Virus record (IMG/VR): IMGVR_UViG_3300027798_000017
Coordinates: 32,001 to 96,000 of that record
Strand: one strand, 5' to 3'
Length of the DNA: 64,000 nucleotides
Source of the DNA: a virus
Part shown: piece by piece, positions 11,985 to 32,608 of the stretch
Layout of the letters: each line of letters opens with the position of its first letter
Numbering within the stretch: position 1 is the stretch's first letter
Notes under the pieces: generated by a model
Database searches by the model: none
Told to the model about the DNA's origin: nothing
What the model saw: only the letters and a program-made list of their open reading frames with translations
Made by a program: the position numbers and the translations under genes

Positions 11985-12836
11985 TTATTTATTTTTTAGC
12001 GTTAATATTTCTTCTTTTAGAGATTTGATCTCTGTATTCATTTCTTGAATTGCTTTAACTAAGATAGGGATTAATCTACCGTAAGATGCTTCTAATTTTT
12101 CAGGATTAGACTCATAAACTAATTTCAAACTATCTGCTATACCACTTTCATCTTGACACTTTTTTAAATCTTGAGCAATAAAACCAATATCATTAATATC
12201 TCTTTTTTCTTCAATGTCTCTGTCATTCCATACAAATTTAACAGGTTTTAATGCATTAATAAATTCTAAACCAACTGGTAATTCTTTTATTTCTTTTTTG
12301 TCTCTACCATCAGATACTGCTGTAATAGTAGTTGCAGCACATCTAAGAGTTGCTACAAATGGATTTCCAAGTGTAAATTCAGAATAGGGATTACTAACAC
12401 TTGGTTGTGAATTAGCTCCTATGCAAGTAGAATTAACACCTGACACAGAATTACTCCCAGCATTCCATCCAATAAATGTATTCCCATCTTGTTGATTTTG
12501 TTGACCAGCACCAACTCCAATATAAGTATTCAAAGAACCATTAATATTTTGACTACCTGATCCAGTACCAATATAAGTATTTGCATACCCATTAATATTA
12601 CTTGTTCCTGCTGAATGACCAATAAAAGTATTACCTCCTGTTGATAAATCAGCTGCTCCTGCAAGGTTTCCAATAAACACGCATTCCTGACTTGGTCTTA
12701 ATATATTACTAGAAGTTAATTGAATAGTGTTATTTGCATTTTTTGCAATGTTAACCCCATTTACATCTACCATAGTTCCATTCAATGGATTTATTACGTC
12801 TGTGTCTATGTCTAAAACTGACAATCCTACTGGCAT
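11985..12836 (-). CDS. Beta-helical fibre/spike with S74 chaperone (paralog 3)
   Basis: NTFIG/NTYIG repeats; SDGRDKK, GFIAQDL. Confidence 0.8.
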   Translation of the reverse strand: MPVGLSVLDIDTDVINPLNGTMVDVNGVNIAKNANNTIQLTSSNILRPSQECVFIGNLAGAADLSTGGNTFIGHSAGTSNINGYANTYIGTGSGSQNINGSLNTYIGVGAGQQNQQDGNTFIGWNAGSNSVSGVNSTCIGANSQPSVSNPYSEFTLGNPFVATLRCAATTITAVSDGRDKKEIKELPVGLEFINALKPVKFVWNDRDIEEKRDINDIGFIAQDLKKCQDESGIADSLKLVYESNPEKLEASYGRLIPILVKAIQEMNTEIKSLKEEILTLKNK

Positions 12837-14999: not shown

Positions 15000-16628
15000 T
15001 TAGAATGATCCTCCAGTCACTGGATTTCTCATAACTATCTTCAACACTTTAGTTGGATCTTTAACCCAAATAGATGGCATTGTCTGAGACATCATAACGC
15101 GATATCCATTAAAGTTTCCAGAAGACTGGAATCCTTGTGAACGTCCCATGTAGTCCATAGTACCATTTTGGTAGAACCATTTTAACTCACTGTCCCATTT
15201 CAATTTCAACAAGAAGATGTTGTCATTTGTGTTGTCAGTGATGTCAAAGATAATAAAGTTGTAAGAAGATAATGGGAAACCATCAATGATTGGGTTTTCA
15301 ATATCGTTAGTGTGAACATTGTCAAATGCTGGATTCAATACAAATTTCACATTTGCCAAGAAAGGAATTGTGTAGCTTGTAAATGCAAATCCAAAGTTCA
15401 AGTCCATTGCACTGTTACCAGAGATAGCACCAACACCTGATTGATCCATGTTGACAGTAAGACCTGTACCAAACGCTTCTCTCTTGATTTGTTGGTTGAT
15501 CATTTTCATACCTGCCATACCTGTTTGTACAATCAAGTTACGTTGTGGATCTGGTCCTTTGAACTCAACTTTACCATTGTAGAAGTTAAAGATCTCAGAG
15601 CGGAACAAGTCAAGAGTAAATCCTGATTTGTTGTAGATTCTTTTGTAAGAGTTGTCTAACTGTGCCCAAAGTCCAACAGATAATCTCATGTCATCTGGAC
15701 CATCTTGTTTAATCTTACCACCTTGACCCCACATTAAGTAAGTTTCAATATCTGTAGCAATCTTAGTCAAGTGAGCAGCTTCCATTTTTGTCAAGAAAGA
15801 ACGTGTCAATGATCCATTGTCATATGCTTTTTTGATATACTCTTTACCCATAACTGCTAACATTTGGTCAATGTTTGCGATAGATGGATCAAGATTTTTG
15901 TCAAATGTTCTCCAGATTTCAGTTACAGGAACTGAACCATCTGCATTTAAACCACCTTTCATCATCATCTCTGCACGAGAAGATACTGAATAGTGTACGT
16001 GAGCTTCAGCACCACCAACAAAGTTGTAGTACTCACGGTATCCATTTGTCAATTCACCAATGTCAGAGAATCTTTCTCCATACTCACCACGCGCAGAACC
16101 TTTTCTAAAGAATTTAGTTCCTGGTTTTAAGTACTTATGATCCAAAGATGCACTGTTGTTATTGTTAACAAGTTGAACAGTGTAGATAAATCCATCAGCA
16201 GAAGGAAGAATGTCATCAGCAACGATGTACATCTCCAAACCTTTATACTTGTCATAAGTGATTATATCACCATGACCAAATACACGTCTGTTTAGTTTGA
16301 TCTTGAAGGTAGTACCATCTTGACCAAGAATAGCAGAAGCTGATTCAATATCCTCAGTAATATAAGGAAGGTCTTGCACAATTGGAGTTTGCCACTTGTA
16401 CTCGCCACGTGGTGTGTCTACCAAAATTGTGTTCTTACCTCCAAATGAAGACATTTGGTAAAGAGGCATTTCTACTTTTTGAGACATTGCCCAAAGATCA
16501 ACAGGACCCAAATCCATAGGTTCTGCAGACTTCAGCATGTTTACTAGGTGGTATGAATCTAGGTGAGACGAAACTTTGTAGCTTGTGTCTCTCAGAAACA
16601 GACCGTTGTTTAAAACTGGTGTTGCCAT
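15000..16628 (-). CDS. Major capsid protein (crAss-like HK97 fold)
   Basis: 542 aa after portal and scaffold; TYLMWGQGG, GLWAQLD, KFVLNPAFD and WVKDPTK motifs. Confidence 0.85.
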   Translation of the reverse strand: MATPVLNNGLFLRDTSYKVSSHLDSYHLVNMLKSAEPMDLGPVDLWAMSQKVEMPLYQMSSFGGKNTILVDTPRGEYKWQTPIVQDLPYITEDIESASAILGQDGTTFKIKLNRRVFGHGDIITYDKYKGLEMYIVADDILPSADGFIYTVQLVNNNNSASLDHKYLKPGTKFFRKGSARGEYGERFSDIGELTNGYREYYNFVGGAEAHVHYSVSSRAEMMMKGGLNADGSVPVTEIWRTFDKNLDPSIANIDQMLAVMGKEYIKKAYDNGSLTRSFLTKMEAAHLTKIATDIETYLMWGQGGKIKQDGPDDMRLSVGLWAQLDNSYKRIYNKSGFTLDLFRSEIFNFYNGKVEFKGPDPQRNLIVQTGMAGMKMINQQIKREAFGTGLTVNMDQSGVGAISGNSAMDLNFGFAFTSYTIPFLANVKFVLNPAFDNVHTNDIENPIIDGFPLSSYNFIIFDITDNTNDNIFLLKLKWDSELKWFYQNGTMDYMGRSQGFQSSGNFNGYRVMMSQTMPSIWVKDPTKVLKIVMRNPVTGGSF

Positions 16629-30420: not shown

Positions 30421-30918
30421 ATGAGTAATGTAAGAATTGTCCCTGGAAAGAAGGGATCTGTAGTGACAGCGTATGATTCAAACGCTGATTTTGGTTATGT
30501 GCAATTAGAGCAAAGTGCTATTGTAATGACCGCTGGATGGATTCGCGAAGTTAAGCGCACGTGCTTATTACGCGGTAAGACTGCTACGCTTGAGCAGTTC
30601 GTAAGCTCTTGTAAAGGTTTGCAAGTAGCTGGTAAATTGGTAGCCCTTGAGTTCCTAGAATCTCAAGTACCTGCTGATGTAGCTAAGGAGTTTCTGCGTG
30701 ATGACGTAAGCTATGAGGAGGCTATTGATAGTTATATCAAGCGTGCTGGTGCTGATGGTCCTGCGTTGACAAGCAATGGAGAACGTATTTTACGCTTTGT
30801 TAAGTGGGATACTGCTGATCAATTGCATGATGTGAATGTTTCTCACGATAATCAAGCAGAGGTTAGCGCGTCTAAAGCACTTGAGAGTGGTAAAGGCATG
30901 TTGCCAGGTGGTGAATAA
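30421..30918 (+). CDS. SSB-like paralog B
   Basis: Shares GY..LE, GWIR..KRTCL.RG, PADVAK..LRDDV..EAI..Y.KRAG.DG and SHDN.AEV with 28826..29317. Confidence 0.5.
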   Translation: MSNVRIVPGKKGSVVTAYDSNADFGYVQLEQSAIVMTAGWIREVKRTCLLRGKTATLEQFVSSCKGLQVAGKLVALEFLESQVPADVAKEFLRDDVSYEEAIDSYIKRAGADGPALTSNGERILRFVKWDTADQLHDVNVSHDNQAEVSASKALESGKGMLPGGE

Positions 30919-30939
30919 CAAGTAACTACCTGATTTAGA

Positions 30940-30985
30940 GGAGGTAAGAGTGGGGGATCAGTCCCTCACTATACCTTTCTTTGCT
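30940..30985 (+). terminator. Intrinsic terminator
   Basis: aggt..agtggggga-tcag-tccctcact..acct followed by T-tract. Confidence 0.6.
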
Positions 30986-31058
30986 TTTAGTTTTTTGCCA
31001 CAATAACACAATGAATTTACGTACTATATAGCTATTAACCACATTAAAACCCACGTCT

Positions 31059-31280
31059 ATGACAAACATTCTATTAGTTACCATTGATAAGTATTACTCC
31101 TATGAAGAAGCTAAACAACATATGTTAGCACAAGGAGTTAATTGGCTTGGTTGGCTTAACTCTGGTATTACTCTTCCTAAGGGTAATTATGAGAAAGCAT
31201 TTAGTAATAGGTCAGGTTCATCCTGTCTATATGTTGATCCTGTTAAAAGGATTGCGTACTCTGTTGATATGGGAGATTAA
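31059..31280 (+). CDS. Hypothetical protein
   Basis: ATG-started ORF ending YSVDMGD. Confidence 0.55.
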   Translation: MTNILLVTIDKYYSYEEAKQHMLAQGVNWLGWLNSGITLPKGNYEKAFSNRSGSSCLYVDPVKRIAYSVDMGD

Positions 31281-31472
31281 GTTCTCCCTTTTTTCTTATC
31301 ATATTATTCTGATTTGCAAGTCAGTTTTTTATGAGAAAGCCATTCCTATTGACTATGTAGGGATTTGCAGGTAAGAGTCCTGATTTAAGTATACATTGTT
31401 GTTGCCCTCAGAGTTTAGATACTCATGGCGTATGCGTTAAGTTCCCTTGTGGAACTACTGAAACAACCTATT

Positions 31473-31592
31473 ACTCTCATCCAAGCAGGACACCTGAAGA
31501 GGTGTATAAAGAATACAATTTATATTGGCAGTAACTTGCACACCATCAGTGGTATGGAAAATTAAGTCAAGGGTTGCAACCTTGTGAGAGTA
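31473..31592 (+). ncRNA. tRNA-shaped RNA (acceptor stem plus T-arm geometry, non-canonical body)
   Basis: ACTCTCA/TGAGAGT 7-bp stem abutting CAAGG-GTTGCAA-CCTTG (5-bp stem, 7-nt loop). Confidence 0.5.
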
Positions 31593-31780
31593 CGAAAAGG
31601 GATTTTAATATAGCTTCTTTTATTCCCTTAAGCTGTCTAACCAACAGTCAAACAAAGAAAAAAACTAGGTTAGGTGATATTACTGTGGTGGTAATAGTGA
31701 ACTAACTGATGTTTTCTCCAAGCTATGGATAACAGCTCAAAAAGCTAACAGCTTATACAGTGCTCATAACAAACTGTGTT

Positions 31781-31813
31781 ATAGACTACTCTCTAGTAGG
31801 GTAGTCTATTTTT
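31781..31813 (+). terminator. Intrinsic terminator abutting the twister-like RNA
   Basis: atagactactct-ctagt-agggtagtctat followed by T-tract. Confidence 0.65.
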
Positions 31814-31916
31814 AATGTACCATTCCTGATTCCCAAGGTCAGGCAGTTGTAATCGAAATTAGATGTATGTATATAACACATACTACCTATAGGTTACAAC
31901 TGAGTACAGAGGGGAT
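31809..31916 (+). ncRNA. Twister-like self-cleaving ribozyme (P1 type with long P5)
   Basis: UUUUU^AA-UGUA-CC...CCUGA-UUCCCAAGG-UCAGG-[CAGUUGUAA/UUACAACUG stem]-AG-UACA-GAGGG-GA matches the twister P2, P4, T1 and T2 layout. Confidence 0.65.
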
Positions 31917-31946
31917 CTACAAAATAGTAACTTATAAATCAAAAAT

Positions 31947-32237
31947 ATGACATTTGAAGACTTGAAATTTGAAAACAATGAGTGGATGGGTGAATATTCT
32001 CATCATCTTTTTGACAACCACTATGGTGTGTCTGTTATACGTGGAGAATACACTAAGGGTGGTAAGGAAGGTTTGTATGAACTTGCAGTAATACACATGG
32101 GACCTAAAGACAAAGAGTCTACCCTTGTGTATGATACACCTATTACTTGTGATGTTATAGGTTATTTGACACCAGGAGACGTGACCAAAGTGATGAAAGA
32201 AGTCAGTGAGTTACCTCTTAGAGAAATAATGCAATAA
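31947..32237 (+). CDS. Conserved phage hypothetical protein
   Basis: FDNHYGVSVI...GG.EGLYELAV...YDTPIT.DVIGYLT motif, familiar from many phages. Confidence 0.7.
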   Translation: MTFEDLKFENNEWMGEYSHHLFDNHYGVSVIRGEYTKGGKEGLYELAVIHMGPKDKESTLVYDTPITCDVIGYLTPGDVTKVMKEVSELPLREIMQ

Positions 32238-32254
32238 CCGTGGGAAGTTAAAGC

Positions 32255-32293
32255 AAGGAGGAGGAGTGTGTAATACATTCCTCCTTTTTTTTT
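32255..32293 (+). terminator. Intrinsic terminator
   Basis: aggaggagtgt-gtaat-acattcctcct followed by a long T-tract. Confidence 0.7.
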
Positions 32294-32324
32294 ATCAGAA
32301 ATTTAATAACCAATAATAAAACAA

Positions 32325-32579
32325 ATGAAAAGAGAAAATTTAAAGTGGGCAATTGCATCAGTAGTATTAGCATTTGGAACAGGACTATTTATAGGAGCTG
32401 TATACAATGCTGATCCTGCTAAAAGATTTGAAGATGTAAAAATTGGTGGCAATATTGATATTGAATACTACCTGGAAGTATCAGAAGATAGTATCTGGGT
32501 AGAAGGTGTTGATAGCAAAAATGTGTATTCAGGTAAATATTCTGAACTTGACAGCTTGATTACGCTAGACAATCTATAA
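32325..32579 (+). CDS. Membrane-anchored hypothetical protein
   Basis: N-terminal hydrophobic helix. Confidence 0.6.
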   Translation: MKRENLKWAIASVVLAFGTGLFIGAVYNADPAKRFEDVKIGGNIDIEYYLEVSEDSIWVEGVDSKNVYSGKYSELDSLITLDNL

Positions 32580-32608
32580 ATTAGTATTCATTTTTTTAAT
32601 TATAACAT

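Follow-up and report, generated by a model that had tools for sequence, protein, structure and literature searches.

The RNA encoded by the + strand at 31813-31915 is very probably a self-cleaving ribozyme of the twister class, type P1, one that is without P3, has a long P5 and in which P1 is nearly absent; as judged by its sequence, this candidate represents a phage version of an established ribozyme class and does not constitute a novel type of RNA. The window, i.e. the whole 64,000-nucleotide stretch of DNA that was analysed, comprises bases 32001-96000 of a 123,252-base IMG/VR virus record and is AT-rich (34% G+C). The genome can be assigned to a crAss-like phage because it encodes a Crassvirus-type major capsid protein (15000-16625, minus strand; PF23898, E 1.5e-32), and most of the DNA runs containing the element's stretch are labelled as freshwater metagenomes. 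Other features of the window include a structural block on the minus strand (614-22973), to which this capsid protein and a Fib_succ_major/SprB-repeat protein at 614-2209 belong, and a MoxR-like AAA ATPase adjoining a VWA protein (36602 to about 39846). The element, which is present as a single copy in its own genome of 123,252 bases, is located at the 3' end of an ORF-poor stretch, immediately ahead of a 96-residue gene. All of the parts listed for it in the initial annotation, which had proposed a variant twister fused to a terminator U-tract, were confirmed in place, and the region is arranged as follows.

31781-31809, + strand: upstream hairpin of 12 pairs, terminator-like by a terminator scan and also by fold
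31810-31813, + strand: U-run UUUU, the tail of the hairpin, which holds the P1 5' strand (31811-31812) and U31813, 5' of the predicted cut
31814-31815, + strand: AA of loop L1, with the cut predicted between U31813 and A31814
31816-31819, + strand: P2 5' strand, UGUA, the partner of 31905-31908
31820-31821, + strand: CC, 5' strand of the T2 pseudoknot, for which pairing with G31837-G31838 is possible
31822-31824, + strand: AUU joint replacing P3, from direct reading
31825-31829, + strand: P4 5' strand, CCUGA, the partner of 31839-31843
31830-31838, + strand: loop L4, UUCCCAAGG, in the order extra U, conserved U, CCC, AA, GG, with the CCC of T1 at 31832-31834 and the GG of T2 at 31837-31838
31839-31843, + strand: P4 3' strand, UCAGG, supported by covariation
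31844-31902, + strand: P5 stem-loop of 59 nt, an optional arm, with a 9-pair base helix CAGUUGUAA/UUACAACUG
31903-31904, + strand: AG joint from P5 to P2, from direct reading
31905-31908, + strand: P2 3' strand, UACA, supported by covariation
31909-31913, + strand: GAGGG, the L1 3' strand, in which GGG (31911-31913) is the T1 3' strand
31914-31915, + strand: P1 3' strand, GA, of 2 pairs only
31916-31946, + strand: remaining leader up to the start codon, containing a TAACT motif
31947-32237, + strand: downstream gene of 96 residues, phrog_4074

The source study for the twister ribozyme, type P1 (Rfam RF03160), is reportedly that of Roth et al. 2014. As in type P1 twisters, the candidate has, in order, P1, U^AA, a 4-bp P2, a 2-nt T2 strand ending in C, P4, a loop of the form U-NNN-AA-GN, an optional P5, P2', and then GA followed by the T1 strand, with T1 being of 3 pairs and the putative T2 of 2. 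PMC5408937 describes a twister P2 of four pairs, a conserved dinucleotide after P2 that forms T2 with two bulged L4 nucleotides, a P4 lengthened by a G-C pair that hardly varies and by a U-A pair in L4, a T1 in which the remaining four L4 nucleotides make three pairs and an A-A with the L1 3' strand, and a cut 5' of a conserved A. According to PMC11662667, P1 is dispensable and P5 well tolerated, and catalysis depends on the A that follows the cut and on the G at the head of the L1 3' strand; by analogy with the roles described there, G31909 would occupy the general-base position and A31814 the general-acid position. The same paper gives a rice P4/L4 16-mer that has both the CCC/GGG T1 and the loop UCCCAAG (PMC11662667).

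By contrast with type P1, the phage family carries an additional U at the L4 5' end, a T2 of CC/GG or UC/GG, not GC/GC, and a variable P4 closing pair in place of the near-invariant G-C; P3 is never present, P5 is always present with a base conserved in sequence, and P1 often has only 0-2 pairs. In the window copy P1 amounts to two contiguous pairs only (U31812-G31914, U31811-A31915), so that the weak P1 of the initial annotation is real here, while it is a covarying 4-bp helix in many other copies; P1 was not treated as defining because it is reported in the literature to be dispensable. The T2 reading as CC/GG, which is a compensated state relative to the GC/GC consensus, fits the rule used in PMC11662667, by which the two-pair pseudoknot is recognised from 'NC' on its 5' side and a complementary partner. 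The other proposed deviations, an extra loop U and a P5 of about 60 nt (here 59 nt), are also genuine, and both are family-wide.

The scaffold of twister-sister is described in PMC5408937 as vaguely similar, but this ribozyme cuts the opposite strand and is without pseudoknot evidence, whereas in the present family T1 covaries and the UAA is on the twister side. A 301-base search around the site gave no Rfam match to twister-sister.

The element belongs to a large family represented in contigs of uncultured viruses. Loci bearing the same motif were reached by way of relatives of the downstream gene, and scanning of viral contigs with one 5' pattern and one 3' pattern gave at least 85 parsed copies, at least 81 of them distinct; L217 was then dropped as a mis-parse, taking the distinct full copies among the matches listed from 81 to 80. 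Four targeted scans, for which the loop triplet was not CCC or the first T2 letter not C and the 3' side was left free, gave 101 further copies. The predicted core is conserved: among the matches listed from the first two scans the loop UUCCCAAGG is identical in 81/81 parsed copies, the dinucleotide after P2 is CC in 79/81 and the tail is GAGGG in 80/81, with CCA, CAC and UCC loop variants, with matching tails, turning up in the targeted scans. UAA was found in 38/42 copies by a parse leaving those three letters unconstrained.

The helices, in turn, vary in sequence. Among the matches listed, P2 occurs as UGCA/UGCA (64 copies), UGUA/UACA (13), AGUA/UACU (1) and UGCG/CGCA (1), and P4 in 16 different versions, every one of which is paired; the P4 closing pair is A-U in the window and C-G, U-A or G-C in other copies. 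The joint at the P3 position in these copies can be AUU, AUAA, ACAA, AUC, AAU, AUA or ACA, and the span from P4 to P2, i.e. P5 plus the 2-nt AG joint, ranges from 14 to 290 nt, with the base of P5 (CAGUUGUAA/UUACAACUG) being conserved in sequence beyond the need of a plain stem. In the closest relative among the matches listed, L188, homology to the window is confined to 31809-31934 (94% identity), and P2 is UGCA/UGCA, a clean U-A to C-G double change compared with the UGUA/UACA of the window.

When bacterial and archaeal genomes were scanned, 120 stretches among the matches listed fitted the 5' pattern and none had the full motif; thus, among those matches, the family was not found outside viral contigs. 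A blastn search of 31400-32300 against 50,697 GenBank phage records gave no match.

The nested helices were tested on a MAFFT alignment of 31 copies, in which 93.2% of the structure cells pair versus 79.4% in shuffles, and in which double changes occur at 19 pairs, a number reached in 0/500 shuffles; when the partners are shifted by 1-3 columns, just 30-47% of cells still pair. In this alignment P4 covaries at 5/5 pairs, P5 at 8/9 pairs of its base helix, and P2 at 2/4 pairs with 100% of its cells paired. T1 and T2 do not vary among these 31 copies. In the targeted scans, by comparison, the T1 tallies are CCC/GGG 35, CCA/UGG 28, CAC/GUG 21 and UCC/GGA 1, with a single mismatch (CCA/GGG), omitting 15/101 copies (12 without a 3' half by regex and 3 matched without the GA prefix).

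A second alignment (72 matches, 60 distinct rows) was produced with the family model, which contains no information on T1; the copies had been picked for variation in the loop, the compensating letters not being selected. T1 pairs here in 98.2% of cells, with double changes at 2/3 pairs. The first T2 pair is C-G in 47 rows or U-G in 10, and unpaired in none, the second being C-G in 59; the T2 strands are thus always complementary, without any double change within the family. UC is present at the T2 5' strand in 54/101 of the targeted-scan copies, with A or G there in none of those parsed. P1 pairs in 87.1% of cells of the 60-row alignment with double changes at all 4 pairs, and has at least 3 pairs in 32/80 copies among the matches listed, compared with 277/2000 mismatched controls. 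Covariation supports the predicted P2, P4, P5 and T1 pseudoknot, as well as P1 in many copies, and since the G-U pairs occur on the + strand, the fold is that of the + strand RNA. The twister layout originally put forward holds in order and position, with covariation in its helices including T1, and the interpretation of the element as a twister is supported at the level of sequence.

Folded alone, the window copy is predicted to form P2, P4 and P5; when the terminator is included, the minimum-energy fold favours a 7-bp helix, GAUUCCC/GGGGAUC, over P4. All P2 and P4 pairs are within the minimum-energy fold in 67/80 copies among the matches listed. The 7-bp helix corresponds to an extension of T1 to 7 pairs (31828-31834 with 31913-31919) at the cost of P4, and this extension is not kept in relatives with different P4 sequences.

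The initial annotation had proposed the Rfam twister-P1 model as a check, and this check proved negative, there being no match either around the site or in the whole genome. Rfam 15 gave no family at gathering score over the whole window and nothing twister-like at E up to 10 in the 301-base search around the site, and RF03160 and RF02684 had no match in the 123,252-base genome. There was also no twister match in two compact relatives, which have 14 nt from P4 to P2 in place of the long P5, so the long P5 is not the sole reason for the result; an interrupted relative likewise gave no twister, and the hits obtained in these searches were to unrelated families, at the level of noise. Applied to 151 genomes from a single bacterial order, RF03160 gave 6 matches of 28-55 bits, all below the 67.2-bit cut-off, and the phage copies score below about 13 bits with this model. 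As the six bacterial matches, five of them twister-like, are also below the cut-off, the negative Rfam test reflects the model more than the RNA.

The bacterial twisters detected with RF03160 (L343-L347) share with the phage family a layout of the type UAA-UGCA-GC ... U-NNN-AAGC ... UGCA-GAG-NNN, and three of them share P2 UGCA/UGCA with most of the phage copies. T1 covaries among them (UAC/GUA, GAC/GUC, CAU/AUG), and in one, L346, T2 is AC/GU, in line with the 'NC' rule. Unlike the phage family, they are without the extra U and without P5, and some have P3. The family model, R1, was not significant against bacterial twisters; it places 4/5 of the twister-like RF03160 matches correctly at only 6.4-8.4 bits (E 1.6-6.9), i.e. 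within noise. The best R1 match in the bacterial set, L343 1562-1634, was rejected as not twister-like. MAFFT alignment of the bacterial and phage copies together brought only the two terminal blocks, 5' and 3', into register and was unreliable in between. Among the papers listed in literature searches no phage twister branch is described and family-specific strings are absent, though published twister lists may already contain members.

Some relatives depart from the standard architecture. At 11 loci (L101:8245-8579, L128:6816-7120, L135, L137, L141, L151, L152, L173, L182, L190, L209) the copy is interrupted within L4 by a structured and conserved insert, about 70-250 nt long, that separates the P4 5' strand from (Y)CU-CCC-AAGG. 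P4 closes the whole insert in these copies, with U-CCC-AA-GG and the 3' half being intact, and the insert helices include GUGG/CCAC (covarying as GUAG/CUAC), CUUCUUA/UAAGAUG and CUGAUUAA/UUAAUCAG. The insert, for which Rfam has no match, could be an added regulatory domain. Because 11 relatives carry a structured insert there, the extra-U position looks structurally peripheral, pointing away from the core. According to PMC11662667, L4 length is uncorrelated with activity, and L4 insertions lowered mean cleavage in a large assay.

In a second group, referred to here as closed relatives (L132:11802-11941 and 12493-12651, L143:242-446, L150:903-1029, L151:6528-6657, L207), the UAA, CC and L4 are missing and P4 is a plain hairpin, while P5 and the 3' half are kept. 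Their 5' CCCUU(U)GCA pairs with the 3' UGCAGAGGG in L132 (twice) and L143; the 5' variant is CCCCAA/CCCCAG in L207 and L151, and is degenerate in L150. On sequence grounds the closed relatives look like non-cutting derivatives, and because they have lost UAA and L4 but kept P5, part of the selected function may lie outside cleavage. Two or three copies per contig, about 150-900 nt apart, are present in L005 (2468, 2695), L037, L045, L082, L176 and others, with three in L624. In L082 and L176 one copy begins right where the previous one ends, so that cutting at its two ends would release the RNA lying between copies.

The context of the family members was compared with that of 2000 random sites from the same loci, a stable hairpin being taken as one with a dG of at most -7 kcal/mol. 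The distance from the end of such a hairpin to the cut site is at most 7 nt in 41/80 copies among the matches listed, versus 391/2000 controls, and a hairpin combined with four or more U among the last six letters is found in 22/80 of the copies listed, versus 33/2000 controls. The sharing of the U-run between terminator-like hairpin and ribozyme, as first observed in the window copy, therefore recurs in the family, and 'terminator fused to ribozyme' is a recurrent design. By analogy, the upstream hairpin corresponds in position to the optional P0 of twisters, i.e. to a stem-loop (P0/L0) directly upstream of the ribozyme 5' end, with or without a linker; as reported in PMC11662667, about 10% of twisters carry such a P0 hairpin, and its presence lowered mean cleavage to 0.40 in the large assay. 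The hairpin differs from P0/L0 in that, here and in 21 others of the 80 copies listed, it is followed by a U-run and resembles an intrinsic terminator in sequence.

Downstream, the next ORF of 40 residues or more starts 28-54 nt past GAGGG in 27/80 copies among the matches listed, with the distance being 33 nt in the window. The leader from A31814 to the ATG at 31947 is 133 nt, in agreement with the approximately 130 nt first given. Some relatives have the downstream gene beside a copy of the element, while others have it without one; neighbouring small ORFs had no Pfam or PHROGs function, and phrog_4074 is itself of unknown function. A TTAAC/TAACT motif is present within 25 nt downstream of the ribozyme in 22/80 copies listed, versus 122/2000 control sites (31925-31935 in the window), and may be a promoter or translation signal. 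L003 has the longer leader, TTAACTTATAGAAACTT...AACTTATG, as well, there without a ribozyme next to it. On the + strand, no sigma-70-like promoter was found upstream (31000-32600), and no TAnnTTTG motif in 30800-32400.

The ORF-poor island (31281-31800) is a mosaic of short RNA-like modules that are shared piecewise with many related contigs. One such module, of 27 nt (31567-31593), has the hairpin CAAGG-GUUGCAA-CCUUG; in 17/80 copies among those listed it precedes the ribozyme on the same strand, at a distance of 88-520 nt. No more than 20 copies of this module occur in the viral loci scanned for it, and 17/20 precede a family ribozyme. RNA-library contigs, one of them with a depth of 550.9, are 90-95% matches to 31409-31467 and 31470-31590 and diverge at 31467/31470. 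In four metatranscriptome runs, contig X14 covers 31826-32094 without a mismatch, such contigs being unable to show RNA ends; no contig in these runs, whose libraries may include DNA, covers 31596-31825.

In the mechanism that we propose, RNA polymerase would pass the upstream hairpin and U-run, and the transcript would then fold into the twister, in which T1 (CCC 31832-31834 with GGG 31911-31913) and T2 (CC 31820-31821 with GG 31837-31838) would bring L4 onto L1. The backbone would be cut between U31813 and A31814, with G31909 and A31814 in the catalytic positions. The upstream RNA would thereby end as hairpin-UUUU with a 2',3'-cyclic phosphate, nearly the same end as that from termination, while the downstream mRNA would have a 5'-OH and a folded 100-nt ribozyme cap, with the start codon of gene 31947 after 133 nt. 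That self-cleavage would be limited to read-through RNA, as had been suggested, follows from this geometry. The role of the element is likely to be in uncoupling the non-coding RNA island ahead of it from the small gene that follows, both of which would obtain defined, structured ends.

Of the explanations that do without cleavage, that of a twister-shaped structured RNA in which cutting has been lost or was never present, retained as a folded leader at the 5' end, as a platform for protein binding or as the bearer of P5, is the one of most weight, although we regard it as improbable. The failure of the Rfam models to find the element is consistent with it, as are the extra U in L4 and a P4 lacking the G-C closing pair; so too is the behaviour of the closed relatives, which keep P5 and UGCAGAGGG in the absence of UAA and L4, and of the P5 base CAGUUGUAA/UUACAACUG, with its higher sequence conservation than a plain stem requires. 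However, a scaffold that does not cut would have no use for UAA, for the conserved U and the AA in L4, or for the GA that precedes T1, yet these are nearly invariant amid covarying helices, and T1 and T2 have been kept through compensating or wobble changes, as an active twister needs.

It is considerably less probable still that the unit acts mainly as DNA, i.e. as a portable joint for the exchange of phage gene cassettes, with the RNA fold being secondary. The confinement of window-L188 homology to 31809-31934, the occurrence of the downstream gene with or without an adjacent copy, and the contigs bearing two or three copies all fit with such a joint, but the mere fact that the unit is repeated could account for exchange there, and the compensating changes, one-strand G-U pairs and covarying pseudoknot indicate selection on RNA rather than DNA. 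Chance resemblance in an AT-rich intergenic region was considered by use of a relaxed twister descriptor (5' half: AA, 4-bp P2, NC, a joint of 1-8 nt, 4-bp P4 and loop U(U)NNNAAGN; 3' half: P2 partner, GA and T1 partner within 320 nt, with the first T2 pair complementary). This has 1 match in the window on both strands, at 31814-31913, and 8 matches in 200 dinucleotide shuffles, so that a fit does arise by chance at 0.04 per shuffled window; against this, there are well over 150 related copies with covariation. The element is far beyond chance because it is conserved in relatives, and chance resemblance, to which we would give hardly any credence, is refuted by the covariation in both alignments.

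A self-cleaving twister of type P1 is thus the preferred reading of the element, and it bears on wider questions about the class. The function of genomic twister ribozymes is described as an open question in PMC6765202, which also notes the proximity of ribozymes to phage genes and a possible part for them in the processing of polycistronic RNA. The phage branch is large and strictly placed: its members follow a hairpin/terminator, lie about 30-50 nt before a small gene and are often past a shared small-RNA module. This turns 'processing of polycistronic RNA' into concrete, testable end-points. Since the catalogue models miss this whole branch of the class, viral twister censuses are underestimates.

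More tentatively, and as a possibility that we consider rather doubtful, the hairpin and twister together could be a portable 'RNA punctuation' cassette of lake crAss-like phages. Such a cassette would give hairpin-protected ends to upstream small RNAs whether or not termination works, and a 5'-OH, ribozyme-capped leader of fixed length to the next small gene, so that ribozymes, not host RNases, would set the transcript boundaries of the early region; the cassettes would move between genomes as units, and in the subset with an L4 domain cutting might be conditional.
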